A stretch of DNA of 64,000 nucleotides from an uncultured Desulfobacterales bacterium (GCA_964513995.1 CAZEOQ010000008.1:8759-72758), one strand, 5' to 3'. Shown: positions 2,319 through 37,245, counted from the stretch's first letter. Notes: generated by a model from the sequence alone, not told the origin. Numbers and translations are program-made.

Positions 2319-3322
2319 AGTTTTCAGAAATAATAGGGCAGAAGACAGCAAAGAATATCCTCATGAAGGCAGCAAAAGGAGGGAGGCTTCCCCATGCACT
2401 TCTTTTTTCTGGAATTTCTGGGACAGGAAAAAAGACAATGGCAAAAGCACTTGCCATGTATCTGAACTGTGAAGATCCAGATGATGATGGTGGATGTGGA
2501 GGATGTAAATATTGCAGACAGATTGTTTCAGGAAATTTTCCAGACTTCTGGATAATAAAGACAGAAGATCCAAAACAGAAGATCTCTATAGAATACATAA
2601 GAGAGATTATAAGAAGGACGAGCTTTTCTCCATTAAGGAACTACAGAATTTTCGTGATTGATGAGGCAGAAAAGCTTACAGAAGAAGCAGGAAATGCTTT
2701 TTTGAAGATTTTAGAAGAACCTCCTGAAAGAAATATCTTTATCCTTAATGTAGTTGAACAGCTAAACCTTCTTCCTACGGTTGTCTCAAGATGCCAAAAG
2801 ATCCCTTTTTATCCTATTCCAAGAAGTGAAATGGTAAAATGGCTCGTAAAAAACAGATCTGTTGATACTGATACGGCTTCTGTCCTTTCAAAGATAAGTG
2901 GAGGAAGTCTTGGAAGGGCTATAAAACTTCTTGAAAGAGATTTTTTTGGAAAAAGGGAAGAATGGATAATGTCTATTATAAAGCTTCCTTCATTTGAAAG
3001 AGAAGAAGTTTTTGGGCTTATAAATAAATACATGGAAATGGATCTTGAAGATATAAAAGACATGTTTACAGTATGGCAAAGCTGGCTAAGGGATATGATG
3101 GTGATAAAGGAAGGAGGAAAAAAGGAGGATATGATAAACAGTGATCTGAGCAGATTGGCAGAAAAAGTAGCAGAAAGGTATTCTTTAAAGACTCTGACAG
3201 ATTCAATAATGCTTATATATGCAGCTGAGCAGGATATTCAAAGGAACAGAAATCTTTTTCTTCTTTTAGAAAGACTTGTCTTTCAGCTTTGGAAACTTCT
3301 TAAAGACTATAGATGCTCATGA
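2315..3322 (+). CDS. holB: DNA polymerase III delta-prime subunit
   Basis: It has GRLPHALLFSGISGTGKKT (AAA+ P-loop), the zinc module CGGCKYCRQI, VIDEAEKLT and SRCQKI (sensor). There is an ATGA overlap with tmk. Confidence 0.85.
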   Translation: MKFSEIIGQKTAKNILMKAAKGGRLPHALLFSGISGTGKKTMAKALAMYLNCEDPDDDGGCGGCKYCRQIVSGNFPDFWIIKTEDPKQKISIEYIREIIRRTSFSPLRNYRIFVIDEAEKLTEEAGNAFLKILEEPPERNIFILNVVEQLNLLPTVVSRCQKIPFYPIPRSEMVKWLVKNRSVDTDTASVLSKISGGSLGRAIKLLERDFFGKREEWIMSIIKLPSFEREEVFGLINKYMEMDLEDIKDMFTVWQSWLRDMMVIKEGGKKEDMINSDLSRLAEKVAERYSLKTLTDSIMLIYAAEQDIQRNRNLFLLLERLVFQLWKLLKDYRCS

Positions 3323-4023
3323 GGAATATCTCCTGCAGGATGATAATGGATATGTTGATGAAGGAAAGATCTTTTTATCTCAACGATCTTCCTGTTTTCA
3401 ATCGTATAATACCTTTCTGTTGTCTTTACTATAAAATCCCAATCATGAGAGACAACAAGTAGTGAAATGTCAAAACTTCTTAAAAGATCAATAATCCTTT
3501 TTCTTGTTTCAGGATCAAGTCCTGTAGAAGGTTCATCTAAAAGAAGTGCTTTTGGTTTCATGGAAAGGACTGTTGCAATAGATACAAGCCTTTTTTCTCC
3601 TCCAGAAAGCTTATAAGTAAGTCTTTCTTCAAATCCTTTAAGTCCTACGAGTTCAAGTGCTTCTTTTGCCCTCTCTATTGCCTCTTCTTTACTCAATCCA
3701 AGATTGAGTGGACCAAATGCAACATCTTCCAGGACAGTTGGGCAGAAAAGCTGATCATCAGGATTCTGAAAGACAAATCCTACATTTCTTCTCATCTCTA
3801 TTAGATCCTTTTCAGAGTCTATAGGTCTTCCATTAAAGAATACTTTTCCTTTTTCTGGCTTAAGTATCCCCATGCATATGTAAAGAAATGTCGTCTTTCC
3901 ACATCCATTAGGTCCAACAAGACCAATCTTTTCTCCTTCATTCAGCTCAAAGTCTATATCCTCAAATATCCTCCTTTCTGAGTCATATGAAAATGAGACT
4001 GATTTAAGACTTAATATAGCCAT
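3307..4023 (-). CDS. cbiO: ECF/cobalt-type ABC transporter ATP-binding protein (CbiO/EcfA family) with His-rich C-terminal tail
   Basis: It has Walker A GPNGCGKTT, the signature LSGGEKRLVSIA and Walker B LLLDEPSTGLD. The C-terminus is HQHIHYHPAGDIPHEHL. It overlaps cbiQ by 13 nt. Confidence 0.85.
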   Translation of the reverse strand: MAILSLKSVSFSYDSERRIFEDIDFELNEGEKIGLVGPNGCGKTTFLYICMGILKPEKGKVFFNGRPIDSEKDLIEMRRNVGFVFQNPDDQLFCPTVLEDVAFGPLNLGLSKEEAIERAKEALELVGLKGFEERLTYKLSGGEKRLVSIATVLSMKPKALLLDEPSTGLDPETRKRIIDLLRSFDISLLVVSHDWDFIVKTTERYYTIENRKIVEIKRSFLHQHIHYHPAGDIPHEHL

Positions 4024-4766
4024 CTTTCAGCAAAATGTATAGCCAATGATATAAGAAAGGCAGATAAAAGTATAAGGACATCAGATACATTTAATGAAAA
4101 CTCCTTGAGACTGTAAAATCTTCCCTTGAATCCTCTAAGAAGCATTGCATTATATATCCTTATTCCCCTTTCATAGCTTCTTATAAATACCATTGCAATA
4201 AGATATGCATATGTCCTGTATGTATGAAGATCTGTTTTTGGAGAAAAGCATCTAAGTCTTGCAGCCTGCATAAGTCTGCTGTATTCATCTTTTATAACAG
4301 TTATGTATCTGTAACTCATAAGAAAGATTAATACAAGTTTGTTTGGAAGACCAATTTTGTTTAATGCATGTCCTAATGAATGGATGGGGATTGTTGCAAC
4401 AAATAGGATTATTATTATAAGAATTGCGTTGCACTTGAGTGTTATTAAAGTAGCAAGCTTTATCCCTTCTTTTGTTGCTTTTAGTTTCCATATTTGAAAC
4501 AGGGTATCTCCTGGAAGAGAAAAAGGGACAAATAGCCAGAGGAATCCTATGAAGAAATTTGCAAAAAAAAGAGACTTAATGACCTTCCTGAAAGGGATCT
4601 TTGAAAGAAAAAGGAGGAAAAAAGAAAAAAATAGGAAAAAAAGAGATACTTCTATTTTTTTTAATAAAGCCGTTGAAAAGGAAAGGAGAAGTCCTGAGAG
4701 AATCCTGATTCTTGGATCTGCTCTGTGTATAAATGAATCTCCTTCCTGATACTTGCTTTCAAACAA
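4011..4766 (-). CDS. cbiQ: ECF transporter transmembrane (T) component, CbiQ/EcfT family
   Basis: This is a polytopic membrane protein with CbiQ-like features (ADPRIRIL near the N-terminus and RLRCF/ERGIRIYNAMLLRGF-type coupling helices). It lies immediately upstream of cbiO. Confidence 0.75.
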   Translation of the reverse strand: MFESKYQEGDSFIHRADPRIRILSGLLLSFSTALLKKIEVSLFFLFFSFFLLFLSKIPFRKVIKSLFFANFFIGFLWLFVPFSLPGDTLFQIWKLKATKEGIKLATLITLKCNAILIIIILFVATIPIHSLGHALNKIGLPNKLVLIFLMSYRYITVIKDEYSRLMQAARLRCFSPKTDLHTYRTYAYLIAMVFIRSYERGIRIYNAMLLRGFKGRFYSLKEFSLNVSDVLILLSAFLISLAIHFAERWLY

Positions 4767-4817: not shown

Positions 4818-5651
4818 TTAATATTCAGGAGGAAGTTCATTCAGTTCTGCAAGAGAAAATACTGGTCCATCCTTGCACACAAATTTGTGTCCAATATTGC
4901 ATCTTCCACACATCCCAATTCCACATTTCATCCTCATCTCAAGAGAAAGAAATATGTCTTCAGGAGAAAAGCCTATCTTTTCAAGAACAGGTCTTGTAAA
5001 TCTTATCATAACAGGTGGACCACAAACAAGTGCTATAGTATTTTCTGCACTTTTTATCTTCTCCTCCACTATATTTGGAACAAGCCCAACATTGTATTTC
5101 CAATCTGGATCATCTGTTGCATCTACGGTTATATGCATATCTATGTCAGATCTTTTTTCCCATTCAAAGATCTCTTTTTTATAAAGAAGAAGTCCTGGTC
5201 TTCTTGCACCATATACGACCGTTATCTTCCCAAACTTTCTTCTGTTTTCAAGCATATATACTATGCTTGATCTGAGTGTCGTAAATGCAAATCCTCCTCC
5301 AACTATAAGTATATTCCTTCCTTCCATCCTTTCCCATGGATATGGTCTTCCAAGAGGTCCTCTTATTCCAATGATATCTCCTTCTTTCATGTTATGCAGA
5401 TAAGATGTAACATATCCTGCTTTGTTTACTGTAAAAAGAAGATATCCCTTTTCTGTTGGAGATGATGCAATACCTATAGGAACTTCACCTCTTCCAGGAA
5501 CAGAAATCTCTGCAAACTGACCTGGAAGAAATTGAAACTTTTTTTCATGTTCTGGATAAAGGAAACTTAGCCTGTATGTCCTTATGTTTCTGTCATCTGT
5601 CTCAACAATTATCCTTTCAATCCTTGCAGGATAAGGAAGATATGGATTCAT
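4818..5651 (-). CDS. FAD/NAD(P)-binding 2Fe-2S oxidoreductase, sulfhydrogenase-gamma (HydG)/AsrB/FlxA-like
   Basis: It has RTYRLSF (an RxYS-type FAD motif), LIVGGGFAFTT (NAD(P) binding) and the C-terminal CGIGMCGRC...C 2Fe-2S motif. Confidence 0.8.
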   Translation of the reverse strand: MNPYLPYPARIERIIVETDDRNIRTYRLSFLYPEHEKKFQFLPGQFAEISVPGRGEVPIGIASSPTEKGYLLFTVNKAGYVTSYLHNMKEGDIIGIRGPLGRPYPWERMEGRNILIVGGGFAFTTLRSSIVYMLENRRKFGKITVVYGARRPGLLLYKKEIFEWEKRSDIDMHITVDATDDPDWKYNVGLVPNIVEEKIKSAENTIALVCGPPVMIRFTRPVLEKIGFSPEDIFLSLEMRMKCGIGMCGRCNIGHKFVCKDGPVFSLAELNELPPEY

Positions 5652-6684
5652 TCCTTTTCTCCTCTGCCAACATGTTTATTATTCTTCTTATATCCATATT
5701 TGTTGGACAATACATTATGCACCTTCCACATCCAGAACACTGTATCCCTTTCTTGTATCTTTCAGGATAATACTTCAGTTTGTGCATAAATCTCTGTCTT
5801 ACCCTTCTGAACTTCTCTCCACGCGGATTATATCCTGATGCATGAAGTGTAAATATCGGAAACATACATGAATCCCAATTCCTAATTCTATCTCCTCTTT
5901 TTCCATACACCTCATCCTGTATGTCAAAACACCAGCATGTTGGACAAAGAAATGTGCAGATCCCACAAGTTATACAGGGAAATGATACAGAATTCCAGAT
6001 ATCTGATTCAAAAACAGAAAGGACTGGTCTTTTAAGAAGATCCTCAATCTTAAGATCTACTTTTATCTTTTCTTCTGCCTCTTTTTTTAACTTTTCTGCC
6101 TTTTCTAAATGCTCCTTTTTTGCTTCATCTCCTCCAATCTTATCCAGAAAATCCCTTCCCTTATCTGTTATGTCCTTTATGAGAAACCCTTCTCCAAGAT
6201 CATACATAATTGCATCAAGTCCTTTTTCACTAAAAGGACCTCCTCCTACTTTCAGACAAAAACAGCTGCTTCTTGGACTATTACATGCAAGTCCAATAAA
6301 TGTCGTAAGACTGTATCTTTTTGTCCACCATGGATCTTTGTATTCAGGAGTGTCAAAATTCTGTTTTACTATCTGAAATGCATGTGCATCACATGGTCTT
6401 ATTCCAACAATTATCTGAGGAGAAAAATCCTTTTTTGCTTCTTTAAGTATGTATGCATCAGGATCATCCTTATCAAGACTGTATTCAAACATCCTTTCTG
6501 ATTGAGGAAAGAGTATGCTTTTTGGAGAAAGCTTTGTGTTGAAAAATGAAAAATCTGGTAAAATGTCATCTTTTAGCTCCTGAAATAAATGGAAGTAATC
6601 CTTTTTTACAGGAACAAATACCTTATAATTTTTAGAAATCTCTCTTAGCTTTTTTAAAAAATCATCCTTCAGAACAAACCTCAT
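5617..6684 (-). CDS. Iron-sulfur protein, sulfhydrogenase-beta (HydB)/AsrA/FlxB-like
   Basis: It has the motifs CITCGICTFLCPTCWC and CSGCGRCIMYCPTN. It overlaps the FlxA-like gene by 35 nt. Confidence 0.75.
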   Translation of the reverse strand: MRFVLKDDFLKKLREISKNYKVFVPVKKDYFHLFQELKDDILPDFSFFNTKLSPKSILFPQSERMFEYSLDKDDPDAYILKEAKKDFSPQIIVGIRPCDAHAFQIVKQNFDTPEYKDPWWTKRYSLTTFIGLACNSPRSSCFCLKVGGGPFSEKGLDAIMYDLGEGFLIKDITDKGRDFLDKIGGDEAKKEHLEKAEKLKKEAEEKIKVDLKIEDLLKRPVLSVFESDIWNSVSFPCITCGICTFLCPTCWCFDIQDEVYGKRGDRIRNWDSCMFPIFTLHASGYNPRGEKFRRVRQRFMHKLKYYPERYKKGIQCSGCGRCIMYCPTNMDIRRIINMLAEEKRNESISSLSCKD

Positions 6685-6696
6685 CTCTTTCTCCTC

Positions 6697-7641
6697 TTAG
6701 ATAAAATCATCATAGTCATCTCTTCTGTATGTAGAAAGAAGCTGCCCTTTTTCCAAAGACATACCTGACTGCCATGAAAAAAGCTCAAATGCATCCTTGT
6801 TAAGTTTCTTTACAAATATCCTTATAGGAATTCCCATAGGACATACCCTTTCACATGAACCACAGTCTGTGCATCTTCCTGCAAGATGCATTGCACGGAT
6901 AATGTGAAATGTAAGCGTATCTACGAAGTCTATACTCTTTCCAAAATACGGGATCTTTTCGTCAATGAAACATGTAGGACAGTAGCAGTGAGGACATACA
7001 TTTCTGCATGCATAACAGCGAATGCATCCTTCTATAGCCTGCTCAATGTAACTTCTTTTTTCCTTCGGTGACTTTTTTTCTATCTCTTCTACATCCTTAT
7101 AAACAGGTCTTTCAGATCTTGGAGTTACAGGATCTGCTACAAGTTCGTCATATATAACAGGATTTGGATGTGTGCAGCTTAGGCAGTTTTCCTGAAGGAA
7201 ATCTTCTTTTTTAAACCTTTCTTCAAATCCATCACAGATTACCTTAAAACTTTCTCCTTCTTCTTCTATCCTTAGGACTTCTTTTCCTTCAATCCTTCTC
7301 AGGACCTTCCTATAGTCAATTATTCCTTTACATGGAATTCCTACAATATAGATCTTTTCCCTCTTTATCTGATTCTCAATTATATGATTCACGATACTTC
7401 TTGATACACATCCTGTTGCAACAATTCCTATCCTTTCCTTTCTTCCTGTAAGATACGTGCAGAGATTCAGTCCACAGTTGCTGTTCCATATGAGTTTTTC
7501 TACTTCTTGAGGATCTGATATAAGTGTTGGTCTTGGAAAAAATGGATTTGTTCCTTTTTCATATCCAATAAAGATGTCTATCCTTTTTTCTTCAAAAAGC
7601 CTTTTTGCTATCTGCCTTATCTTTTCTGTATATCCTTCCAT
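6697..7641 (-). CDS. Iron-sulfur protein, FlxC-like (FrhB/FdhB-like N-terminal domain plus two 4Fe-4S motifs)
   Basis: It has the motifs CIRCYACRNVCPHCYC and CTDCGSCERVCPMG. The N-terminus is similar to the N-terminus of the 1027-aa HdrA-like protein. Its start abuts the mvhD stop. Confidence 0.65.
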   Translation of the reverse strand: MEGYTEKIRQIAKRLFEEKRIDIFIGYEKGTNPFFPRPTLISDPQEVEKLIWNSNCGLNLCTYLTGRKERIGIVATGCVSRSIVNHIIENQIKREKIYIVGIPCKGIIDYRKVLRRIEGKEVLRIEEEGESFKVICDGFEERFKKEDFLQENCLSCTHPNPVIYDELVADPVTPRSERPVYKDVEEIEKKSPKEKRSYIEQAIEGCIRCYACRNVCPHCYCPTCFIDEKIPYFGKSIDFVDTLTFHIIRAMHLAGRCTDCGSCERVCPMGIPIRIFVKKLNKDAFELFSWQSGMSLEKGQLLSTYRRDDYDDFI

Positions 7642-8069
7642 CAGGGAACCTCTGCTCTTCTTTTTACAAAGAAATCAGAAGGACCAAGTTTTTTTACTTT
7701 TTCTGCAATAAGCTTTGCTGTTTCAGCAAACTTTGTTCCTTCTGCTGAGGATATCCATGAAAAGAAGATCCTTTCTGGTTCTATTCCGATAAATTCAAGG
7801 AGTCTTTTAAGAAGAACGAATCTCCTTCTTGCATACATATTCCCTTCTATATAATGACAGTCTCCTGGATGACATCCTGATACCCATACTGCATCTGCAC
7901 CATTTCTGAATGCCTGAATAATGAATCTCGTATCAACTCTGCTAGAACATGGAACCCTTATTATCCTGAAATAAGGAGGATACTGAAGACGGCTTACTCC
8001 TGCAAGATCAGCAGCACCATAACTGCACCAATTGCAAAGAAATGCAACAATCTTTGGTTTCCATTCCAT
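7641..8069 (-). CDS. mvhD: MvhD/FlxD-type hydrogenase iron-sulfur (2Fe-2S) subunit
   Basis: IVAFLCNWCSYGAADLAG...RVPCSSRV...VSGCHPGDCHY is the canonical MvhD cysteine pattern. Confidence 0.85.
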   Translation of the reverse strand: MEWKPKIVAFLCNWCSYGAADLAGVSRLQYPPYFRIIRVPCSSRVDTRFIIQAFRNGADAVWVSGCHPGDCHYIEGNMYARRRFVLLKRLLEFIGIEPERIFFSWISSAEGTKFAETAKLIAEKVKKLGPSDFFVKRRAEVP

Positions 8070-8073
8070 CTCT

Positions 8074-11000
8074 TTATTCTCCTATTCTCCTTATTTCATC
8101 AATCATGCTCATTATCTGTTCTGTCCTGAATCCATTAAGATTTATTGCTCCTGACCTGCAAGATGCAACACAAAGACCACATCCTTTACATAGAACCGGA
8201 TTTATTGCTGCCTTTCCTTTAAATGGACCTTCTTCAATAAAGTATGGTGCACCATATGGGCATATCTTTATGCATGTTCCACATGATGAACACAGCATTG
8301 GATTCACTTCTGCTACATATCCTTCTGTAAGTATCTTGTCCTTTGTAAGAAGGACTGTTGCTCTTGATACTGCTGCCTTTGCCTGAGATATTGCTTCATC
8401 AATCGGTTTTGGATAATGACACATCCCACAAAGGTATATTCCATCTGTTGCAAATTCTGCTGGTGCAAGCTTTGGATGTGATTCTACAAAAAATCCGTCT
8501 TCATTCAGTGGGACTTTGAAGAATTTTGCAATCTGCTCACTTTCTTCATTAGGAACTATTGCTGATGCAAGAATGATAAGATCTGGCTGGATAATAATAT
8601 CTCTTTCAAGGATATGATCTTTTACCTTTACCTTGAGGACTCCATTCTCATTTGAAACCTCTGGCTTCTTTTCAAGATCATATCTTATAAAAAGAACACC
8701 CTTTTTTCTTGCCTCAAGATAAAGATTCTCTCTTTCTCCATATGTCCTTATGTCCCTGTAAAGTATGTATATGTCCATTTCAGGATTCAGCTCTTTCAGA
8801 TAAAGAGCACTCTTTATAGAATGAGTACAGCATACCTTTGAACAATAAGGTCTTTCCTTATCTCTTGAACCAACACACTGTATAAATACAACACTTTTTA
8901 GTCTTTTAAGAGAAGGATCTCCTTTTATGAACCTTTCATCAAGCTCAAGACCTGTAATAACCCTTTGATCTTTTCCATAAAGATATTCATCAGGCTTATA
9001 TTCCTTTGCTCCAACAGCAATTATTACTGCTCCATGTTCAATAATGTATTCTTTTCCATCTGATAGGATCTTTGTCTTAAAGTTTCCAACAAATCCCTCA
9101 ACTGAAATTATCTTTGCCTTAAGAAATACTTCTATGTTCTTATCATTTCTTACATCTTCTATAAGAGCTTTAAGTCTTTCCTGAACATCCTCTCCTTTCC
9201 ATGTCTTATAAATCCTCCTTGCCTGTCCTCCAAGCTCCTTTTCCTTTTCAACAAGAAATACCTTGTATCCCTGCATTGAAAGTGATCTTGCTGCTGTCAT
9301 CCCAGCTATTCCACCACCTATAACAAGGACATTCTTGTTTATACTTATCTTTTCTTCTTTAAGTGGTTCCATAAGAGAAACCTTTGCTACAGCCATCCTT
9401 ATAAGATCCTTTGCAATATCTGTTGCATCTTCTGGAAAATCCTTATGAACCCATGAATCCTGATTCCTTATATTTGCCATCTCAAAAAGATACTTATTAA
9501 GTCCTGCACTGATAAGTGTTTCCCGAAAAAGAGGCTCATGTGTCCTTGGAGAACATGCAGCAACAACAATCCTATTCAGACCTTTTTCTCTTATAACCTG
9601 AGCTATCTTTTCCTGTGTCTCCTGAGAGCATGTATATAGGTTGTCTTCTACATGTTCAACAAAAGGAAGGGTTTTTGCATATTCCTTAAGTTCAGAAATG
9701 TTTATGACTCCACCAATATTTATTCCACAATGACAGATAAATACACCAACTTTTGGTCTCTCTCCTGATACATCCCTTTCAGCTGGAAGAGTCTTTTCTT
9801 TTACAGCAGTTCCCCTTACATCACTTAAAAGGATTCCCACTTCACAAGCAGAAGCAGATGCATCTATTACAGAAGATGGAATGTCTTTTGGACCAGAAAT
9901 CGTTCCGCATACAAAAATGCCTTTTTTTGATGTAGATACAGGAGAGAATGAATCCGTATAAACAAACCTTCCTTTTGTAAGCCTTATTCCAAACCTCTTC
10001 AGTATCTCTTCCATCTCTTCCCTTATCTCAAATCCAACAGAAAGGACAACAATGTCAAAAAGCTCACTTTTTGGCATCCCTTTATCATCAAGATATCTTA
10101 TAAGAAGATCACCATTTTCTTCCTCTATCGTATGTATCCTTGCTCTTATAAATCTTACACCATCTTTTCTTGCCCTTTCATAGTATCTTTCAAATTCCTT
10201 TCCATATGTCCTCATATCCATATAGAATATTGCACAGTCAACTTCTGGATTATGCTCCTTTGCAACAACAGCCTCCTTTATTGCATACATACAGCATACA
10301 GAAGAACAGTATTGATTTGTCTTTATTTCACGAGATCCAACACACTGAATCCACGCAATCTTTTTTGGCTCTTTTCCATTAATAAGAAGTCTTCCTTGTG
10401 TTGGACCTGATGCAGAAAGTATCCTTTCAAATTCCATTGAAGTCATTATATTCTTATGATTCCTGTAGTTATAATTTGGAATAGATGATGGATCAAATAC
10501 CTTAAGACCTGAAGCAAATATTATTGCCCCTACCTCTATCTGTTCTATCCTTTCTGTATCATCAAGCTTTATGGCACCTGCCTGACATACCCTTTCACAT
10601 CCCTTGCAATCAAGTATATCATTTATCTTAAGACATGCATCTGGATCTCTTGCTGCCTTAAGTGGAACAGCCTGTGGATACTTTATGTATATTGCTTTTC
10701 TGTATGAAAGCCCTTCATTGTATTCATCAGGAACAACAACAGGACATACATTTATCCTTCTTATTGCTCCTTCTTTGCATGCCTCAATACAGCTCCAGCA
10801 ACCTGTGCATTCAAATGTATTGTATATAGGCTTTTCGCAGTTGCACTTTATTGCCTGCTCTAAGGAACATTCAATCCCTATGAATCTTAATCTTCTTAGA
10901 TCAACCTCCTCTTCAAACTTCCTCAAAGCCCTTATATCACATCCTCTCATAACAGCAGCAAGCTTTATATCTGGATCTTTTTTCAGTATCCTCTTTACTA

Positions 11001-11157
11001 TACCTGCAAGACTGTATCTTGGCTCTGTCTCAAGATATTCTATCTCTTCTTCTTTCCTGAAAAGATAAGGACCAACATGCCCCCATCTTTTTCTGAGTCC
11101 AAGGACAAGATATCCTTCTCTTATAGCAGATATTGCCTCTTTCTTTATCCTTTCCAT
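8074..11157 (-). CDS. Giant HdrA-like flavoprotein: N-terminal FrhB-like domain, an HdrA body lacking its own N-terminal Rossmann strand, then a complete second HdrA module
   Basis: The first half has AIYIKYPQAVP, IQCVGSREIKTNQYCSSVCC and GIFVCGTISGPKDIPSSV, but no GxGxxG upstream. The second half has NVLVIGGGIAGMTAA, IQCVGSRDKERPYCSKVCC and the terminal ferredoxin motifs CSSCGTCIKICPYG and CKGCGLCVASCRSG. Confidence 0.85.
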   Translation of the reverse strand: MERIKKEAISAIREGYLVLGLRKRWGHVGPYLFRKEEEIEYLETEPRYSLAGIVKRILKKDPDIKLAAVMRGCDIRALRKFEEEVDLRRLRFIGIECSLEQAIKCNCEKPIYNTFECTGCWSCIEACKEGAIRRINVCPVVVPDEYNEGLSYRKAIYIKYPQAVPLKAARDPDACLKINDILDCKGCERVCQAGAIKLDDTERIEQIEVGAIIFASGLKVFDPSSIPNYNYRNHKNIMTSMEFERILSASGPTQGRLLINGKEPKKIAWIQCVGSREIKTNQYCSSVCCMYAIKEAVVAKEHNPEVDCAIFYMDMRTYGKEFERYYERARKDGVRFIRARIHTIEEENGDLLIRYLDDKGMPKSELFDIVVLSVGFEIREEMEEILKRFGIRLTKGRFVYTDSFSPVSTSKKGIFVCGTISGPKDIPSSVIDASASACEVGILLSDVRGTAVKEKTLPAERDVSGERPKVGVFICHCGINIGGVINISELKEYAKTLPFVEHVEDNLYTCSQETQEKIAQVIREKGLNRIVVAACSPRTHEPLFRETLISAGLNKYLFEMANIRNQDSWVHKDFPEDATDIAKDLIRMAVAKVSLMEPLKEEKISINKNVLVIGGGIAGMTAARSLSMQGYKVFLVEKEKELGGQARRIYKTWKGEDVQERLKALIEDVRNDKNIEVFLKAKIISVEGFVGNFKTKILSDGKEYIIEHGAVIIAVGAKEYKPDEYLYGKDQRVITGLELDERFIKGDPSLKRLKSVVFIQCVGSRDKERPYCSKVCCTHSIKSALYLKELNPEMDIYILYRDIRTYGERENLYLEARKKGVLFIRYDLEKKPEVSNENGVLKVKVKDHILERDIIIQPDLIILASAIVPNEESEQIAKFFKVPLNEDGFFVESHPKLAPAEFATDGIYLCGMCHYPKPIDEAISQAKAAVSRATVLLTKDKILTEGYVAEVNPMLCSSCGTCIKICPYGAPYFIEEGPFKGKAAINPVLCKGCGLCVASCRSGAINLNGFRTEQIMSMIDEIRRIGE

Positions 11158-11158
11158 C

Positions 11159-13189
11159 TTACTTCCTCTTTACATTTACTGCACATGCCTTAAAGTTTGG
11201 TATCTTTGAAAAAGGATCAAGCTTTCTTGATACAAGCATGTTTGCAGGAGATTCCTTAAAGTGCATTGGAATAAAGATTACTCCAGGTTCTATTTCTTCA
11301 GAAACATAAGCCTTTATCTCAATCTTTCCTGTCTCTGAGATTACCTCTACAGTATCACCTTCTTTTATACCCAGCCTTTCTGCATCCCTTCTGCTTATCT
11401 CAACATATCCTTCATTTACTTCATTTTCCAGTCTTTCTATCTTCCTTGTTATGCTTCCTGTGTGAAAATGAAAAGGACATCTTCCTGTTATAAGGATAAA
11501 TGGATACTTGTCAGAAGGTTTTATCTGAGTATGTTCAACTGAAAAGAATCTTGCCTTTCCTATAGGAAATCCGTCTTTGTAAAGAAATGGTGTTCCTGGA
11601 TGATCTTCTGAAGGACATGGCCACTGAATTGTTTCTCCACTTTCAAGCCTTTCATATGTTATTCCTGCATAGGATGGTGTAAGCCTTCTTATTTCATCCA
11701 TTATCTGCTTTGGAGAAGAATAGTTAAATCCTTTTGCTCCAATCCTTTCTGCAATCTCACATACTATCTTCCAATCTGGCATTGAATTTCCAACAGGATC
11801 TATAGCCTTTCTTACTCTCTGGACTCTTCTGTCCGTATTCGTAAACGTTCCATCTTTTTCTGCAAAGCTTGATGCAGGAAGGACAAAATGTGCAAGCTCT
11901 GCTGTCTCAGTAAGGAATATGTCAACTACTACGAGAAGTTCTAAAGAACTCAATGCTTTTTTTACATGACTTATGTCAGGATCAGAAATTGCTGGATTCT
12001 CTCCAAATATTATCATTGCCTTTAGAGAACCTTTTTCTGCCTCATTCATCATCTCAACCAAAGTAAGTCCTTTTTTTTCTGGAACAGGAACTCCCCATTC
12101 CTTTTCAAAGACCCTTCTTGCATCCTCATCATCTACTCTTCTATATCCTGTAAGCACATCTGGAAGAGCACCCATATCACACGCACCCTGAACATTGTTC
12201 TGTCCGCGAAGAGGATTTACTCCTGTTGCTGGCTTTCCTATGTTTCCTGTTGCAAGTGAAAGATTTGCTATTGCCTTTACATTATCTGTTCCGTTTATGT
12301 GCTGTGTTATTCCCATTGCATAAAAAAGCATTGATCTTGATCTTGCATAAAGGATGGCTGCTTTTTCTATAAGCTCCTTAGATGCTCCTGTAATGCTGCT
12401 TACATAATCTGGATCATACCTTTTTACGGTCTCTTCAATTTCCTGAAATCCCTGTGTCCTTTCACTTATAAAACTTCTGTCTATGAGTCCTTCTTTTATT
12501 ATCACATGAAGAAGACCATTAATAAGTGCAATATTTGTTCCTGGCTTTATCCTCAGATATATATCAGCATATCTGCTTATAGGAATACTTCTTGGATCAG
12601 CTACAATAAGCCTTGCTCCTTTCTGCTTTGCACTTATTATCCAGCTTGCAACAAGAGGGTGCTGACTTGTTGTATTGCTTCCTGTAATGAATATGCATTC
12701 AGCCTGATCTATCTCTGTTATAGAATTCGTCATTGCACCTGCACCAAATGCCTGTCTAAGTCCTTCTACTGTGCTTGAATGACAAAGTCTTGCACAGTGA
12801 TCTATGTTGTTCGTTCCTACAGCTGCTCTTGCAAATTTCATTATAAGATAGTTTTCTTCATTTGTGCATTTTGCACTGGAGATTATTCCAACAGAATCAG
12901 GTCCGTATTTTTCTATTATCTTTTTAAGCCTTTCTGATATCTCCTTTAAGGCAGTATTCCAGTCTGTCTCAAAGAACCTTCCATTCTTTTTTACGAGAGG
13001 ATTCTTCAGTCTTTCAGGATGCTGAACAAACTTATGTGCACTTCTTCCAAGGACACAAAGCTTTCCTCTGCTTACAGGATGTGTCTTGCACGGAACAACC
13101 CCTTTTATCTCACCATCTTCTACTTCAAGATAAAAATTGCATCCTGTTCCACAAAAAGGACATGTTGTAAGGACAAAATCAGAGTTCAT
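11159..13189 (-). CDS. fdhA: Formate dehydrogenase catalytic subunit (molybdopterin/tungstopterin oxidoreductase), Cys-type
   Basis: It has an N-terminal CPFCGTGCNF 4Fe-4S motif and the active-site block HCARLCHSS, with Cys where E. coli FdhH has Sec, followed by His. LRGQNNVQGACDMGALPD is typical of the FdhF/FdhA family. Confidence 0.85.
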   Translation of the reverse strand: MNSDFVLTTCPFCGTGCNFYLEVEDGEIKGVVPCKTHPVSRGKLCVLGRSAHKFVQHPERLKNPLVKKNGRFFETDWNTALKEISERLKKIIEKYGPDSVGIISSAKCTNEENYLIMKFARAAVGTNNIDHCARLCHSSTVEGLRQAFGAGAMTNSITEIDQAECIFITGSNTTSQHPLVASWIISAKQKGARLIVADPRSIPISRYADIYLRIKPGTNIALINGLLHVIIKEGLIDRSFISERTQGFQEIEETVKRYDPDYVSSITGASKELIEKAAILYARSRSMLFYAMGITQHINGTDNVKAIANLSLATGNIGKPATGVNPLRGQNNVQGACDMGALPDVLTGYRRVDDEDARRVFEKEWGVPVPEKKGLTLVEMMNEAEKGSLKAMIIFGENPAISDPDISHVKKALSSLELLVVVDIFLTETAELAHFVLPASSFAEKDGTFTNTDRRVQRVRKAIDPVGNSMPDWKIVCEIAERIGAKGFNYSSPKQIMDEIRRLTPSYAGITYERLESGETIQWPCPSEDHPGTPFLYKDGFPIGKARFFSVEHTQIKPSDKYPFILITGRCPFHFHTGSITRKIERLENEVNEGYVEISRRDAERLGIKEGDTVEVISETGKIEIKAYVSEEIEPGVIFIPMHFKESPANMLVSRKLDPFSKIPNFKACAVNVKRK

Positions 13190-14129
13190 ATCTCATTCTC
13201 CTGTTTTTATCCATCCTTTTTCTTACAAAATCTATTATCTTTCTCTTTGCCTCTTCGCTGAGACCTGGAACAAGCTTGAAGGCATCTTCTGGTGAGAAGA
13301 ACTGTGTTATATCCTGGAGGGTCTTGAGGGGTATTCCTGCTGGACATGTCTCCTCACATTCACCACAAAGTATACATCTATCCCATACCTGATATGCCCT
13401 TATGAGGTGAAATTCAGGATATCTTGGAGGGACTTCTCCCTGTTTTATCCATTCTGAAATCCTAAGCTCATCTTCTTCTTCCTCTCTTACAGGACACTGA
13501 TCAATACATCCATAACACTTTATGCATCTTACAAAATGTGAATCCCAGAATCTCTTCCTCTCTTCTAAATCCATCCTTATGAGCTTTTGCAAAAGATTTG
13601 GTTCTTTTTCCTTTTTTGCTTCACGGATAGCTTTTTGAACCACATTTGTAAGAGCATTCCTTTCTTTGTTTTCCTCTGTGCACGCCTTTACACATTCACC
13701 ACAGTGGATGCAGGCTACATCATCTATGATGATCCTGTCTACCCAAAGTCTTCCATCTTTTTCTTCTGGCTCTTTTTCCAAAAAAATAGAACAGCATTCA
13801 CCACATCCAGTGCACTTTTCTGCATCTACATATCTTGGTCTTATCCTCAGCTTTACCCTGAAATTCCCCTCTTCCCCTTCTATTTCTTCTATCTTTGCAA
13901 GTGTTATTATCTTTATATTTGGATGCCTTCCAACCTCAACCAGGTTGGGAGAAAGTATTCACATAGAGCAGTCATTTGTAGGAAATGTCTTATCAAGCTG
14001 ACTCATTATTCCTCCAACAGCAGAAGTCTCTTCAACCAGATATACAAAATATCCTGAATTTGCAAGATCAAGTGCTGACTTTATCCCAGATATACCTCCA
14101 CCAATTACCATAACAGACCCTTTTTTCAT
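13179..14129 (-). CDS. Selenocysteine-containing HdrA N-terminal (FAD Rossmann) domain fused to a poly-ferredoxin domain; in-frame UGA at 13959-13961
   Basis: The ATG at 14127-14129 has GGAGG 7 nt upstream. The translation is [15 protein letters not shown]...[31 protein letters not shown]..., continuing in frame with no other stop into the 200-aa ORF listed at 13179-13781. The UGA is codon 57 and sits at the second Cys of the Hdr[12 protein letters not shown] motif. Ferredoxin motifs [23 protein letters not shown] and [12 protein letters not shown] follow. Confidence 0.75.
13930..13948 (-). promoter_or_regulatory. Candidate bacterial SECIS hairpin
   Basis: In the mRNA sense the sequence is CCAACCU-GGUUG-AGGUUGG: a perfect 7-bp stem with a 5-nt G/U-rich loop. 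It starts 11 nt after the in-frame UGA. Confidence 0.55.
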
Positions 14130-14719: not shown

Positions 14720-17106
14720 AAGAAAGATTTGTAGAGGTTGCTGTAGGTCTTCCAATAAGGAAGACATTTACGTATCTTCTTCCAGAAGAGCTTCCTCTGA
14801 AAGATTATACAGGATACAGGGTCCTTGTTCCTTTTAAGAATCAGGAAACTGTAGGATACATCCTGGGAGATACAGAAAAGATAGAGAATGTGAAGGAGAT
14901 TCTGGAAATACTTGATTCAGGACCTATTTTTACGAAAAAGATGGTAAGCTTTTTCAGATGGCTTTCTGATTATTATTTTTACCCAATAGGTCAGATAATT
15001 CAGACTGCGCTTCCTCCTGGGATAAATGTTATAAGATACAGGGTTGCAAGGATTACGAAAAAAGGAGAAAAGGCACTGGATGAGCTTCCTGAAAATAGTC
15101 CTGAAAAAAAGGCTCTTCTCTGGATAAAAGAGAATCCTTATAGAAGAATAGAAGACATTCCTCAAAGGATTCTTGATAAGCTTTCAGAAAAAGGCTGGAT
15201 AAAGGTAAAAAGGAAGATAAAGAAAAAAGAAGGAAAAGATCCTCTTATAAGGAAATTTGCAAAGATAAAAGAAGGGGTTATTAATGTTGAAGGGCTGAGT
15301 GATGAAGAAAAGGAATTTCTGAATGAGATAAAAAAAAACATACCGCTTTGCAGGCTCATAGGAAAGTTCAGAAATGTTTATTATCTTGCAAGAAAGCTTG
15401 AGAAAAAAGGAATAATAAAGACTGAATATCTTCCTATTCACAAAGCAGTGGATGGTCAGATCATTGGACCTGTATCTATTCCAGAAAGACTTCATCCTCA
15501 GCAAGAAAAAGCCCTTTCTGAAATATATTCCTCACTTAAGGAAGGAAAATTCTCTGTAAAGCTTCTTTTTGGTGTTACAGGAAGTGGAAAGACAGAAGTT
15601 TACAGAAGAGCTGCAAAGATGGCTATAAGTATGGGAAAAAAAGTAATATTTCTTCTTCCTGAAATATCTCTTGTCTTATACATGGAAAGCATATTCAGAC
15701 AGACATTTGGAGAAAGGGTTGCGGTATATCACAGCAGAATGAGTCCTGGAGAAAGATATGATCAGTGGATGAGGATGATAAAAGGTGAGGTGGACATAGT
15801 TATTGGTGCAAGATCTGCCATATTTTCTCCTCTTCCAAATGTTGGTCTCATAATAGTAGACGAAGAACATGATCCTTCATACAAGCAGGAAACAGCTCCA
15901 TATTATCATGCAAGGGACTGTGCTGTGATGAGAGGAAAGATTGAGGATGCTCTGGTTATTCTTGGTTCTGGAACTCCTTCTGTCCAGTCATATTATAACA
16001 GTCAGATAGGCAAATACACACTTATAGAGATGCCAAAAAGAGTTGAGGATCGTCCTCTTCCAGAAATGGAGATAGTTGATATGAGAAAGGAAAGGGCAGG
16101 GACGATCTTAAGCAAAAGGCTTCTTTCTTCCATAAAAGAAGAGCTGGAAAAGGGAAATCAGGTCATCCTTTTTTTAAACAAAAGAGGATTTTACAGACTC
16201 TGCGTATGCTCTGTATGTGGAACATCCATAAAATGTCCTAACTGTGACCTAAGCCTTGTATATCACAAAGACGGAAAGCTAAGATGTCATTATTGTGGAT
16301 ATTATTCTGAAAGACCAGAAAGATGTAAGATCTGTGGATATATGAGCTTCAGACTTATGGGTTTTGGGACAGAAAGAGTAGAAAGAGAAATAAAGAGGCT
16401 TTTTCCAGAAGCAAAGGTAGAAAGGATGGATGCAGACAGTGTAAGAAAAAAAGGAAAAATTGCAGATATACTAAAAAGATTCTCTGAAAAAAAGATAGAC
16501 ATACTCATAGGGACACAGATGATAACAAAAGGCTATCATTTTCCTTCTGTTACACTTGTAGGAATCATTTCTGCTGATATAAGCCTTTCTTTTCCAGACT
16601 TCAGAGCAGCAGAATGGACATATCAGCTTCTCTGTCAGGTTGCAGGAAGGGCAGGAAGGGGTGAGCAGAAAGGTAAGGTAATAGTTCAGACATTTAATCC
16701 TGATCATTACTGTATAAAAGCAGCTATAAGACACAGTTTTTTTTCTTTTTATGAAAAAGAAAAAACCTTTAGAGAATGTCTGAGATATCCTCCTTTTTCT
16801 CACTTAAGCTGTATAAGGATCCAGGGAAACAGTGAAAAGAATGTGTGTGAATCAGCAAAGATGATGGAAGAGGAGATAAAAAAAATTTTAGAAAACTATC
16901 CTTTTAAGGATCAGATCCAGATTCTTGGACCAATAGAGTCTCCCATAAAGAAGCTTAAAGGGAAATACAGATGGCAGATAATAATAAAAAGTTCAAGGCA
17001 CTATATACAAAAGCCAATATTTGAACAGATTGAAAAGATGTCAGAAAGATTAAAGACAAAAGGAGTAAGCATATCTATTGATGTTGATCCATATTATATG
17101 CTTTAA
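14716..17106 (+). CDS. priA: Primosomal protein N-prime (replication restart helicase PriA)
   Basis: It has Walker A GVTGSGKTEVY, the DEEH box IVDEEHD, and the Cys-rich zinc region CSVCGTSIKCPNCDLSLVYHKDGKLRCHYCGY...CKICG. Confidence 0.9.
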   Translation: MKERFVEVAVGLPIRKTFTYLLPEELPLKDYTGYRVLVPFKNQETVGYILGDTEKIENVKEILEILDSGPIFTKKMVSFFRWLSDYYFYPIGQIIQTALPPGINVIRYRVARITKKGEKALDELPENSPEKKALLWIKENPYRRIEDIPQRILDKLSEKGWIKVKRKIKKKEGKDPLIRKFAKIKEGVINVEGLSDEEKEFLNEIKKNIPLCRLIGKFRNVYYLARKLEKKGIIKTEYLPIHKAVDGQIIGPVSIPERLHPQQEKALSEIYSSLKEGKFSVKLLFGVTGSGKTEVYRRAAKMAISMGKKVIFLLPEISLVLYMESIFRQTFGERVAVYHSRMSPGERYDQWMRMIKGEVDIVIGARSAIFSPLPNVGLIIVDEEHDPSYKQETAPYYHARDCAVMRGKIEDALVILGSGTPSVQSYYNSQIGKYTLIEMPKRVEDRPLPEMEIVDMRKERAGTILSKRLLSSIKEELEKGNQVILFLNKRGFYRLCVCSVCGTSIKCPNCDLSLVYHKDGKLRCHYCGYYSERPERCKICGYMSFRLMGFGTERVEREIKRLFPEAKVERMDADSVRKKGKIADILKRFSEKKIDILIGTQMITKGYHFPSVTLVGIISADISLSFPDFRAAEWTYQLLCQVAGRAGRGEQKGKVIVQTFNPDHYCIKAAIRHSFFSFYEKEKTFRECLRYPPFSHLSCIRIQGNSEKNVCESAKMMEEEIKKILENYPFKDQIQILGPIESPIKKLKGKYRWQIIIKSSRHYIQKPIFEQIEKMSERLKTKGVSISIDVDPYYML

Positions 17107-18262
17107 GAAGTTTAAGATAAAATTCTTCAAGGCTCTTTGCAGCATCTTCTATAAGAAAATTCCTTAAAGCATATTCCCTTGCCTTTTTTCCAAAAGACCT
17201 TCTTTCTTCTTCATTTTCTATAAGTCTTTTCCATGCCTCTTTAAGTGAAATGATATCCTTTACTACAATTGCACTGTCTTTTACAATCTCTGGAAGCATT
17301 CCAAAATCAGATACAACACATGCCTTTCCCATAGCCATTGCCTCTCTAAGAGCCCTTGCAGTTCCATCAGATCCTGGCATAAGAAGAGTAAATATGTCCA
17401 TGCAGTTTATTGTATCAACATAATCTTCTCTTCTGTATCCTGCAAGTATGACATTTCTTTCTATTCCAAGTCTTTTTACTGGTCCTATAACCGTCTCATT
17501 TATCTTGCTTGATCTTCCTACAAGAAGAAAATATACATCACTTCTTTCTTCAAGGATAAGCTTTGCTGCTTTCAAAAACCAGTCCATCCTCCTGTATCTC
17601 TGAAATCTTGCAACAGTTCCAATAACTACTGCATCTTCTGGAATACAAAACTCTTTTCTCATATCCCTGAATCTCTTCTCAGGATTAAATCTTTCAAGAT
17701 CAATCGTCATTCTCTGAATGGCTGTCCTTTCTGGATCAAGACCAAATCTTTCTATGTATTCCCTTCTGAATCCTTCTGTAAAAAAGAGAAATCCGTCTGT
17801 ATGTCTCAGGAGCCATCTGTTAAAAAGATTCTCCTTCATAGGAACTCTTTTGTGAAATGTCCTTACAAGGACTGGTCTCTTTTTTCCAAGAAACATTGAA
17901 CAGATCGTTCCAATTGCATGATCATGAGATAGGTGCATGTGAACTATGTGAAATCTCTCTTTTTTAAGATATGCTGGAAGATAAATGAGATCTTTCAGGG
18001 TATTTATAAGACCTATGTTTCTGTCAAGACTGAATCTCGTAACCCCTTCTATACCTTCTTCTTTTACCTTTTTTTCAATCGTAAGATTCTCTGTCTTTAC
18101 AGGATCTTTCCTAAAAGCAATCTTTACATCATGTCCTCTTTCTTTAAGACCTCTGCATATCTGGAGCACAGGTTCTGCAGGACCTGTCCATCTCCAGTCA
18201 CTATAAAGATGAAGAACTTTAAGGGAAGATCTTTCCTGGATTGAGTATCCCATTTGGATCAA
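17075..18262 (-). CDS. Glycosyltransferase family 4 (GT-B, GT1/GT4-type)
   Basis: It has a GT-B architecture with an N-terminal WRWTGPAEP block and a C-terminal E(x7)E-like region (ALREAMAMGKACVVSD). The start is uncertain (M1 or M4). Confidence 0.75.
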   Translation of the reverse strand: MIQMGYSIQERSSLKVLHLYSDWRWTGPAEPVLQICRGLKERGHDVKIAFRKDPVKTENLTIEKKVKEEGIEGVTRFSLDRNIGLINTLKDLIYLPAYLKKERFHIVHMHLSHDHAIGTICSMFLGKKRPVLVRTFHKRVPMKENLFNRWLLRHTDGFLFFTEGFRREYIERFGLDPERTAIQRMTIDLERFNPEKRFRDMRKEFCIPEDAVVIGTVARFQRYRRMDWFLKAAKLILEERSDVYFLLVGRSSKINETVIGPVKRLGIERNVILAGYRREDYVDTINCMDIFTLLMPGSDGTARALREAMAMGKACVVSDFGMLPEIVKDSAIVVKDIISLKEAWKRLIENEEERRSFGKKAREYALRNFLIEDAAKSLEEFYLKLLKAYNMDQHQ

Positions 18263-36852: not shown

Positions 36853-36864
36853 AGGAGGAAAAAA

Positions 36865-37221: not shown

Positions 37222-37245
37222 AAAATAAAAAAGGAGGTATAAAAG

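Follow-up and report, generated by a model that had tools for sequence, protein, structure and literature searches.

What is a formate dehydrogenase (FDH) gene doing in the middle of a split HdrA gene, next to the genes for an NAD(P)H-type flavoprotein module? The question is raised by seven genes on the minus strand, at positions 4818-14129 of a 64,000-nucleotide stretch of DNA (hereafter the window) from an uncultured Desulfobacterales bacterium (GCA_964513995.1, CAZEOQ010000008.1:8759-72758). The CO2/formate couple has an E0' of about -430 mV, and for energy-poor anaerobes the NAD(P)H-driven reduction of CO2 to formate, or the recovery of energy from formate oxidation, is a recurring problem, met with in Wood-Ljungdahl autotrophs, in syntrophs and in sulfate reducers that oxidise their substrates completely. 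The operon suggests an uncharacterised solution, in which an FDH would be wired directly to the low-potential side of a bifurcating flavin of the HdrA type. We propose that the seven genes encode one soluble cytoplasmic complex that couples CO2/formate to NAD(P)H by way of such a flavin, and we judge this proposal to have a little less than an even chance of being right. The original prediction, made from the sequence of the window, had put forward the general idea of a soluble formate/NAD(P) complex working by flavin-based bifurcation or confurcation. The domain content and conserved hallmarks described below lend support to that idea.

A seven-gene operon

We confirmed seven closely spaced, co-directional open reading frames (ORFs), here numbered g1 to g7, in 4818-14129. 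Each was annotated with Pfam and NCBIfam profiles and with sequence matches to the PDB.

13179-14129, minus strand: g1, 316 codons; predicted selenoprotein; N-terminal piece of the HdrA FAD domain plus an FdhB-type Fe-S domain
11159-13189, minus strand: g2 (FdhA), 676 aa; TIGR01591 at 894 bits against a cutoff of 666
8074-11157, minus strand: g3, 1027 aa; HdrA models match three stretches
7641-8069, minus strand: g4, MvhD/FlxD-type [2Fe-2S] adaptor, Cys form, 142 aa; PF02662 E = 5e-54; VhuD model 143 bits
6697-7641, minus strand: g5, FlxC-like, FdhB-like Fe-S protein; match to 7bkb_E, E = 6e-24
5617-6684, minus strand: g6, FlxB-like; sulfhydrogenase beta/AsrA-type Fe-S subunit; Fer4_22 E = 1e-30; HydB model E = 1e-44; 9nez_B E = 6e-40
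4818-5651, minus strand: g7, FlxA-like; FAD/NAD(P)H/[2Fe-2S] protein of the sulfhydrogenase gamma/AsrB/PyrK/NfnA family; FAD_binding_6, NAD_binding_1 and DHODB_Fe-S_bind

This profile annotation bears out the domain assignments originally made for all seven genes. Going from g1 to g7, neighbouring genes overlap by 11, 1 and 35 nt at the first, fourth and sixth junctions and are separated by 1, 4 and 12 nt at the second, third and fifth; the spacing of 1-13 nt first given for the cluster fits five of the six junctions and fails at the last. Both g6 and g7 match subunits (beta and gamma, respectively) of sulfhydrogenase I of P. furiosus; the solved relatives of g7 are 9nez_C (E = 5e-60) and the small subunit of NfnI (E = 7e-12). 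Taken together, g4-g7 hold the content of an FlxABCD module, that is, an FAD/NAD(P)/[2Fe-2S] subunit, two Fe-S subunits and an MvhD-like protein, alongside hdrA.

The 5' flank of the operon holds a divergent hydrolase gene and priA. A promoter scan returned fewer promoter-like sites than shuffled sequence did and a terminator scan gave nothing informative, so the operon boundaries are drawn from spacing. The seven genes are not chance neighbours, since many contigs have them in the same order between unrelated flanks. Searches for the CCG motif and the Pfam CCG domain found no CCG-domain protein in the operon, in its ±10 kb flanks or in the entire 64 kb window. The HdrB/HdrC disulfide reductase that partners HdrA is accordingly missing from the window, as had been reported for the locus, and we did not detect DsrC in the window either.

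An HdrA dimer cut into two genes

Going by their sequences, g1 and g3 are two pieces of one "self-heterodimeric" HdrA resembling BamE, the fused HdrA dimer of class II benzoyl-CoA reductase (BCRII). The domains of the two genes are as follows.

g1 residues 1 to ~125, minus strand: N-terminal piece of the HdrA thioredoxin-reductase (TrxR)-like FAD domain; GxGxxG; Cys54-x-x-Sec57, where Sec is selenocysteine
g1 residues ~190-305, minus strand: FdhB-type C-terminal 2x[4Fe-4S] domain; matches 7bkb_E 282-390, E = 1e-13
10837-11157, minus strand: g3 residues 1-107, FdhB/FrhB-type N-domain; four invariant Cys (73, 97, 105 and 107)
9820-10833, minus strand: g3 residues 109-446, inserted ferredoxin domain and remainder of HdrA unit 1; aligns to HdrA 245-494 of 5odc_A and 8rvu_a
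8077-9780, minus strand: g3 residues 460-1027, HdrA unit 2; aligns to HdrA residues 2-244 and 465-650

Positions 141-262 of the NCBIfam HdrA2 model match g1 residues 5-125. Ferredoxin-type Cys motifs occur at about residues 100-150 of g1; four such motifs follow the HdrA part, and Fer4 families match. In many related loci g1(4-150) and g3(108-1026) form a single in-frame ORF. By this Rosetta-stone argument the two pieces belong to one fold, and their products would assemble.

The two units of this dimer differ. Unit 1, composed of g1 1-125 and g3 109-446, would hold the bifurcating FAD together with Lys294, Glu244, the Cys54/Sec57 pair and the inserted ferredoxin domain. Its g3 portion contains Lys294 in the motif CCMYAIK (corresponding to HdrA Lys409), Glu244 and the Cys of the TrxR-domain [4Fe-4S] cluster. 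The lysine is kept in 119 of 120 homologues, and Glu244 and the Cys/Sec pair are invariant; by residue count along the alignment, Cys54 and Sec57 correspond to Cys194 and Cys197 of M. wolfeii HdrA. Unit 2 consists of an N-terminal cluster domain, an FAD domain and a C-terminal 2x[4Fe-4S] ferredoxin domain, and from its FAD domain both the Cys pair and the inserted ferredoxin are missing. When aligned to HdrA chains of known structure, unit 2 has "KTWKGEDVQERL" opposite a 13-residue HdrA stretch; at position 782, the equivalent of Lys409, 104 of 120 homologues have Glu. The protein is of the HdrA type, with the TrxR-like FAD domain, GxGxxG and the TrxR-domain [4Fe-4S] motif (CVGSR...CC), whose Cys are invariant. 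The features that mark bifurcation in HdrA, the Lys409-equivalent and the Cys194/Cys197 pair, are both found in unit 1 and are both missing from unit 2, whose flavin site is probably structural.

This division of labour is that of BamE, in which the first unit bifurcates, the second does not and an MvhD-like adaptor is encoded downstream; here the dimer is spread over two ORFs. Fused HdrA proteins of anaerobic methanotrophic archaea (ANME), encoded next to FdhAB-like genes, show the same Cys197/N-domain complementarity (PMC9012536). The original prediction had treated a split HdrA N-terminus and a double HdrA as separate modules, which we replace with one fused dimer cut in two. It was right that two HdrA-type units are present, and its count of two flavin modules has to be amended in that the hallmarks of bifurcation are confined to unit 1.

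An FDH module inserted at the cut

Where is the HdrA gene cut, and what lies in the cut? The break falls where the inserted ferredoxin domain begins. Comparison with the fused relatives shows an insertion made up of g1 residues ~126-316, FdhA and g3 residues 1-107. FdhA is the catalytic subunit of a cytoplasmic FDH with a Mo/W-bis-pyranopterin guanine dinucleotide (Mo/W-bis-PGD) cofactor and has no Tat signal. It matches the Pfam families Molybdop_Fe4S4, Molybdopterin and Molydop_binding, has the N-terminal [4Fe-4S] domain and exceeds the TIGR01591 cutoff for FDH alpha subunits. Its active site has Cys at the Sec position (HCARLCHSS), the adjacent His and the Arg in NPLRGQNNVQG; of 71 homologous loci, 22 have TGA at the active-site codon and 48 a Cys codon. 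Its nearest solved relatives are 9t1s_L (the F420-FDH alpha subunit of a methanogen Hdr complex; 761 bits), FdhF of the hydrogen-dependent CO2 reductase (7qv7_S) and 7bkb_D.

The sequences on either side of FdhA point to FdhB. The N-domain of g3 is rare, with 56 representatives out of 1.84e9. An AlphaFold2 model of g3 residues 1-121 has a mean confidence score (pLDDT) of 83, and the best Foldseek match of the modelled N-domain is 8rvu_E, an FdhB-like chain (E = 3e-5), followed by HCAR and FrhB. Aligned with hhalign, the N-domains of g3 and g5 are weakly similar (58% probability, E = 1e-4). For its part, g5 aligns to residues 29-136 and 285-375 of 7bkb_E (FdhB), with the central flavin/F420 part absent, and has a weak Pfam match to FrhB_FdhB_N and none to FrhB_FdhB_C. 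No operon protein matches PF04432, and a full F420-type FdhB/FrhB is represented by pieces only. Sequence and structure prediction thus indicate that FdhB has been dismembered, with pieces fused to both of the HdrA fragments that flank FdhA. It had been stated that the operon has no FdhB; that statement no longer holds, as the g1 C-terminus, the g3 N-domain and g5 all carry FdhB-derived parts.

Selenocysteine at the proposed bifurcating flavin

The second residue of the Cys pair in unit 1 is encoded by an in-frame TGA.

13959-13961, minus strand: in-frame TGA, Sec codon 57 of g1 (predicted); TGA and Cys codons interchange at the site across loci
13926-13952, minus strand: hairpin resembling a selenocysteine insertion sequence (SECIS), 9-35 nt past the TGA; fold -13.3 kcal/mol

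The codon stands in the context TNDC-S-M-U-ILSP. Of 52 related loci in which it is readable, 22 have TGA and 30 a Cys codon (TGC or TGT); in an alignment of 47 g1 sequences, position 57 is Sec in 23 and Cys in 24, and 15 other Cys are invariant. From 68 Sec-type sequences RNAalifold predicts a consensus hairpin at the site; from 74 Cys-type sequences it predicts none. Counting against a SECIS element is the hairpin of the window itself, which has a z-score of -1.26 and folds no better than shuffled sequence; at gathering thresholds Rfam reported tRNA only and no SECIS family. Because the TGA aligns with an invariant Cys and the hairpin is confined to Sec-type sequences, we read the TGA of g1, on this comparative evidence, as a genuine Sec codon. 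The gene thereby shows both signs of a bacterial selenoprotein, a UGA opposite the Cys of its homologues and a SECIS hairpin after it.

Conservation and partner genes in relatives

How widespread is this arrangement? A homology search with g3 returned an identical protein, by which we assigned the source contig, JBMXHN010000062 of GCA_053987455.1. A first genome scan, with the conserved HdrA core (the g3 family) as query, returned mostly sister architectures; a second scan, of metagenomes and with the rare g3 N-domain as query, recovered the true relatives. FdhA lies directly upstream of an N-domain-bearing g3 in 71 loci, and g1 lies upstream of FdhA in 52 of the 54 loci with enough upstream sequence on the contig. 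We surveyed the downstream side in the 29 loci with at least 7.3 kb of downstream sequence. The form seen in the window, MvhD-FlxC-FlxB-FlxA, occurs in 13 of these long loci (Flx-type), which share the full seven-gene order. The module is conserved across many uncultured Desulfobacterota, and in relatives it is combined with HdrD, NfnAB, MetFV or DsrC.

No CCG protein is encoded near 12 of the 13 Flx-type loci. The exception, L003, has a Sec-containing HdrD-like gene after FlxA (16737-17966). An HdrD-like gene with an in-frame TGA follows FlxA in L003, L037-L039, L041 and L067, and the corresponding gene of L083 has Cys ("LPE-U-GHAYY" versus "TECGHAF"); in L003 and similar loci the gene apparently encodes a selenocysteine-containing HdrD. 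In a second form, found in 8 of the 29 long loci, NfnA/NfnB-like genes lie downstream, and in 7 of these 8 an HdrD gene (Pfam CCG) lies directly upstream of g1. In a third form, seen in about 11 core loci, MetV-MetF and an HdrC-like gene lie directly upstream of the core. The original prediction had named HdrBC genes co-transcribed beside the block as a finding that would refute it. This is the case in some relatives, where the missing high-potential module (HdrD, MetFV or, in sister clusters, DsrC) is encoded beside the core, but not in this window.

More broadly, the scan with the g3 family indicates that a double HdrA followed by MvhD is the base of a modular superfamily. Its forms include a fused HdrA with FlxCBA, HdrL with a GltD/NfnB-like domain at the split site, NuoE/NuoF-like genes at the split site, and FdhB-FdhA following the core. 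Among the sister clusters without FdhA, 16 loci have a bona fide DsrC gene after FlxA (105 aa, ending ...CKMAGLPKPTGCV).

Several further observations concern these relatives. Every one of the 12 Flx-type loci in which position 57 of g1 is readable (L001-L003, L085, L088, L090, L091, L096, L102, L112, L113 and L161) has Sec there, and the HdrD/Nfn-type and MetFV-type loci have Cys. In the MetFV-type loci, HdrA-MvhD-MetV-MetF and the HdrC-like gene adjoin the 5' side of g1-FdhA-g3-MvhD (L119 2807-14346; also L115, L132, L134, L139, L016, L159, L160 and L166), so that the core is physically linked to the methyl branch of the Wood-Ljungdahl pathway; mobA was detected near the MetFV-type core only in L119 and L132. 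The gene directly after the FlxA-like gene is dsrC in L005, L009, L010, L012, L014, L015, L018, L019, L021, L025-L027, L033, L035 and L045, and the dsrC-bearing double-HdrA/MvhD/FlxCBA clusters encode no CCG protein. NuoE-like and NuoF-like genes occupy the HdrA split site in L010 (6889-13003) and in L013, L015, L018, L019, L021 and L025, where the rest of the double HdrA carries a fused NuoG-N-like 2Fe-2S domain. All of these except L013, which has neither, continue with MvhD-FlxCBA and DsrC and so contain two NAD(P)H modules in a single cluster. The delta proteobacterium strain NaphS2 (L086, ADZZ01000479, 1019-8745) has a split g1 (Sec)/g3 pair, with no FdhA between the two HdrA pieces, and MvhD-FlxCBA. 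A phosphofructokinase gene was considered as a conserved neighbour and rejected because it occurs in a minority of loci; it lies divergently, upstream of g1, in L003, L085, L086, L112, L113 and others, and neither the window nor the majority of Flx-type loci has it.

Comparison with known systems

In the literature that we searched, we found no characterised enzyme with this subunit composition, in agreement with the original prediction, and no description of an FdhA inserted in a split HdrA with an FlxCBA arm. The likeness first drawn to the Flx-Hdr system and to the methanogen Fdh-MvhD-Hdr complex is supported by domain and PDB matches. By architectural analogy, however, the closest solved analogue is one that had not been named, the BamDEF-GHI part of BCRII (BamBCDEFGHI of Geobacter metallireducens; cryo-EM preprint, bioRxiv 10.64898/2026.04.10.717634). 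In BamE, the key positions are Cys59/Cys62, Lys280 at the bifurcating FAD and Gln768 at the non-bifurcating FAD (bioRxiv 10.64898/2026.04.10.717634); the correspondence of the Cys pair, the Lys and the second-unit position with those of g1 and g3 is one of residue numbering and not of direct alignment. Both systems have a fused HdrA dimer with a bifurcating FAD, Lys and Cys pair in the first unit only, an MvhD-type adaptor (BamF) encoded directly downstream and an NAD(P)H-oxidising input module. Both use selenocysteine, and in both a pterin enzyme is wired to the inserted ferredoxin domain as the low-potential output, which for the operon is our proposal. The operon differs in that its HdrA dimer is cut into two ORFs at the site of the inserted ferredoxin and in that there is no BamD/HdrD at the locus. 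Its output is a Mo/W-bis-PGD FdhA with FdhB-derived adaptors instead of the AOR-type BamB with BamC, and its input is of the HydB/HydG/FdhB-like (Flx) type instead of the NuoEFG-like BamGHI. None of the BCRII partners (the AOR-type W enzyme BamB, BamC, BamD or BamGHI) is encoded in the operon, where FdhA and Flx-type subunits take their places. The recently solved BamE architecture is evidently not confined to aromatic ring reduction and is apparently a modular platform.

The FlxABCD-HdrABC system of Desulfovibrio vulgaris, as relayed from Ramos et al. (2015) in PMC5947623 and PMC10553843, resembles the operon in domain content. Its host, too, is a sulfate reducer, and its HdrA has as neighbours an MvhD-like protein, two Fe-S subunits and a [2Fe-2S]-containing NAD(P)H flavoprotein; NADH-driven bifurcation has been proposed for the system. 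Compared with the system so described, the operon has no HdrB/HdrC, its HdrA is a split pseudo-dimer, the flx gene order is reversed (DCBA) and FdhA would replace free ferredoxin on the low-potential side. The methanogen FdhAB-MvhD-HdrABC complex and the Hdr-Fmd/Fwd supercomplexes (7bkb, 8rvu, 9t1s; PMC13580544, PMC13518236) have the most similar FdhA, the FdhB-derived domains and MvhD. In those complexes, FDH supplies the electrons by way of MvhD and an intact FdhB that binds FAD and F420, and CoM-S-S-CoB is reduced at HdrBC. In the operon, by contrast, FdhB is dismembered and without its flavin/F420 part, the FDH sits at the inserted-ferredoxin site, NAD(P)H would be one of the partners and HdrBC is missing. 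The methanogen supercomplexes nonetheless set a precedent for passing bifurcated low-potential electrons straight to a CO2-reducing pterin enzyme (PMC13580544, PMC13518236).

Two further groups bear comparison. A bifurcating FDH that is soluble and depends on formate, NAD and ferredoxin is known from Clostridium acidurici (HylABC-FdhF2; PMC5861303). Unlike anything in the operon, its bifurcating subunit is a NuoF-like FMN protein; neither a NuoF-like FMN/NAD subunit nor a NuoE-like subunit was found among g1-g7 with Pfam and NCBIfam. Tandem or fused "heterodimeric" HdrA of ANME, and the HdrL-MvhD-FdhAB clusters of Desulfobacterium and Desulfurivibrio (PMC9012536, PMC2702500, PMC12142623), have complementary HdrA units and co-located FDH-like genes. 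However, FdhAB is complete and separate in these clusters and follows MvhD, none has FdhA inside a split HdrA or an FlxCBA arm, and their functions are hypothetical. Hypothetical functions have likewise been given to HdrA/HdrL-MvhD-FdhBA in Desulfobacterium (PMC2702500), to HdrBCA-MvhD-FdhBA in Chloroflexi (PMC5736913) and to HdrL-MvhD-FdhAB and FdhA-HydB-HydG in Desulfurivibrio (PMC12142623). In the "Hdr/Flox" cluster Sfum_1969-1977 of S. fumaroxidans, two hdrA, Flox and HdrD are named and Sfum_1975/76 are not (PMC5947623); we could not equate it with the operon. The predicted complex falls outside HdrABC, BCRII, F420-FdhAB and HylABC-FdhF2, yet it clearly uses the same parts, and to judge by its domains it is best called a member of the HdrA-type flavin-based electron-bifurcating complexes.

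A proposed mechanism and its rivals

How would electrons move through such a complex? By homology, NAD(P)H would be oxidised at g7 (FAD, [2Fe-2S]), and electrons would pass through the Fe-S clusters of g6 and g5 to the [2Fe-2S] cluster of MvhD and on to the FAD of unit 1, which would bifurcate them. In HdrABC and BamE, electrons enter by way of the C-terminal ferredoxin domain and MvhD, and the TrxR-domain cluster passes the high-potential electron on to HdrC or BamD (PMC9012536; bioRxiv 10.64898/2026.04.10.717634). The inserted ferredoxin domain is the low-potential exit in HdrABC (PMC9012536) and feeds BamBC in BamE (bioRxiv 10.64898/2026.04.10.717634). In the operon, the FDH module is inserted at this exit and the NAD(P)H arm adjoins MvhD, as it does in Flx-Hdr and as BamGHI does beside BamF, which together suggest that FdhA is on the low-potential branch. 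The low-potential electron would then travel from the inserted ferredoxin domain through the clusters of g1 to FdhA, reducing CO2 to formate without free ferredoxin. The high-potential electron would leave through the TrxR-domain cluster to an acceptor encoded elsewhere, for which relatives offer an HdrD-type CCG protein, DsrC, or MetFV with methylene-tetrahydrofolate as candidates. The reaction would be reversible; run backwards, formate and a high-potential donor would confurcate to give NAD(P)H.

The chief difficulty for this scheme is its third partner. No CCG protein, DsrC or MetFV is encoded in the 64 kb window or near 12 of the 13 Flx-type loci, so that the high-potential module is absent here and a three-partner scheme is incomplete at the locus. 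In addition, FdhA is placed on the low-potential branch by gene order and the insertion point. Both points weigh against the scheme. In its favour, the HdrD, DsrC and MetFV genes that stand beside the same or sister cores suggest what the high-potential partner could be, and a DsrC-type sink is plausible because sat-aprA-qmoABC lies in the same window. The insertion site is also occupied elsewhere, by NuoE/F-like genes in L010 and by a GltD/NfnB-like domain in HdrL-type proteins. A bolder version of the proposal, which we regard as somewhat unlikely, takes the start of the inserted ferredoxin domain as a general "socket" where catalytic modules are supplied directly with bifurcated low-potential electrons, and the operon as a bacterial counterpart of the methanogen Hdr-Fmd supercomplex. 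The cost of NAD(P)H-driven CO2 reduction without free ferredoxin would then be met by the second electron going to DsrC, the thiol/disulfide hub of sulfate reduction. The modules found at this site are FdhA here, NuoEF-like genes in L010 and a GltD/NfnB-like domain in HdrL-type clusters, and BamBC is fed from it in BamE. The Cys54/Sec57 pair might even reduce DsrC directly, with no CCG subunit. If this version were true, carbon fixation or formate cycling would be mechanistically coupled to dissimilatory sulfur metabolism.

Might formate instead be the donor? FdhA would then feed electrons in at mid potential, MvhD-FlxCBA would be the high-potential exit to NAD(P)+ and free ferredoxin the low-potential acceptor, all on an HdrA-type rather than a NuoF-type flavin. 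The overall reaction is that of HylABC-FdhF2 (2 formate + NAD(P)+ + 2 Fd(ox) -> 2 CO2 + NAD(P)H + 2 Fd(red)), which is reversible, already known and thermodynamically feasible (PMC5861303). Such a scheme closes its electron balance with the operon subunits and ubiquitous ferredoxin, and it fits the lack of HdrD, DsrC and MetFV at 12 of 13 Flx-type loci. The Fer4_8/Fer4_17 dicluster domain of g5 is HdrC-like and could take the position of HdrC. However, all solved HdrA-type complexes take electrons in by way of MvhD and release the low-potential ones through the inserted ferredoxin domain, the exit at which FdhA sits here, and in Flx-Hdr, as relayed in the papers cited above, the Flx module is the proposed NADH donor. 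The loci with HdrD upstream lack MvhD-Flx downstream, as though Flx and HdrD were alternative high-potential arms; against this, HdrD and an NAD(P)H module (NfnAB) occur together in the second form. On balance, we consider formate-driven bifurcation unlikely.

Two simpler explanations carry less weight still. The complex could be a non-bifurcating, reversible NAD(P)H-dependent FDH/CO2 reductase in which the HdrA core and MvhD act as a one-/two-electron converter and wire, which would account for the lack of a third-partner gene at the locus. As established thermodynamics has it, the potential of the CO2/formate couple comes close to that of NAD(P)H when formate is scarce and bicarbonate plentiful. 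Moreover, the FdhA-HydB-HydG clusters of Desulfurivibrio, which have no HdrA, are proposed NAD(P)H-dependent CO2 reductases (PMC12142623). Since these clusters do without HdrA and MvhD, some 1,500 residues of the two would be superfluous for a wire; the strict conservation of the unit-1 hallmarks (Lys294, Glu244 and the Cys/Sec pair) and the genuine high-potential modules attached to the same core in relatives also make a mere wire quite improbable. Alternatively, the locus could encode two neighbouring enzymes, a Flx-Hdr-like NAD(P)H:ferredoxin/DsrC oxidoreductase (g1 and g3-g7) and an independent ferredoxin-using FdhA, or FdhA could act on a substrate other than formate. NaphS2, with its split g1/g3 and MvhD-FlxCBA and no FdhA between, and the many sister clusters without FdhA fit the former, and the uncertain substrates of the ANME Hdr-linked FdhA homologues (PMC9012536) fit the latter. 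Yet FdhA lies between g1 and g3 in 52 of the 54 g3-N-domain loci with upstream sequence available, start and stop codons overlap or abut, the FdhB-derived domains at both flanking gene ends have no other obvious role, and FdhA scores above the TIGR01591 equivalog cutoff with a Cys/Sec-His-Arg active site. We therefore find this last pair of readings highly doubtful and retain NAD(P)H-driven bifurcation to an attached FdhA as our proposal.

Other features of the window

Genes for an energy-coupling factor (ECF)-type CbiQ and an ABC ATPase (3307-4766, minus strand) begin 51 nt past the g7 stop codon. No terminator-like site was seen between g7 and CbiQ, and the two genes may be co-transcribed with the operon; their pairing with it is not kept in related loci.

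A dissimilatory sulfate-reduction set occupies 35494-44261 on the plus strand and comprises sat (ATP-sulfurylase), aprA (37702-39588) and qmoA-, qmoB- and qmoC-like genes, from which we infer that the host has a DsrC-based sulfur metabolism. The cluster mates of aprA are named adenylylsulfate reductase alpha, a gap beside it (36852-37702) would fit an aprB-sized gene, and the product of the qmoB-like gene resembles HdrA and ends in an MvhD domain. One member of the 90%-identity cluster of AprA, RLJ03267.1, is labelled "Candidatus Aenigmatarchaeota archaeon", and the GyrB encoded in the window is Desulfobacterota-like, its nearest named proteins being about 65% identical; the archaeal label is probably due to a mis-binned contig in a public metagenome-assembled genome.

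The genes dnaN-gyrB (47662-51161) lie 20 kb from the minimum of the cumulative GC skew, with no adjacent dnaA and with a glycosyltransferase/TPR gene preceding dnaN. The minimum itself falls near 24-26 kb, beside yidC (25473-27035), and the window probably spans the replication origin region.

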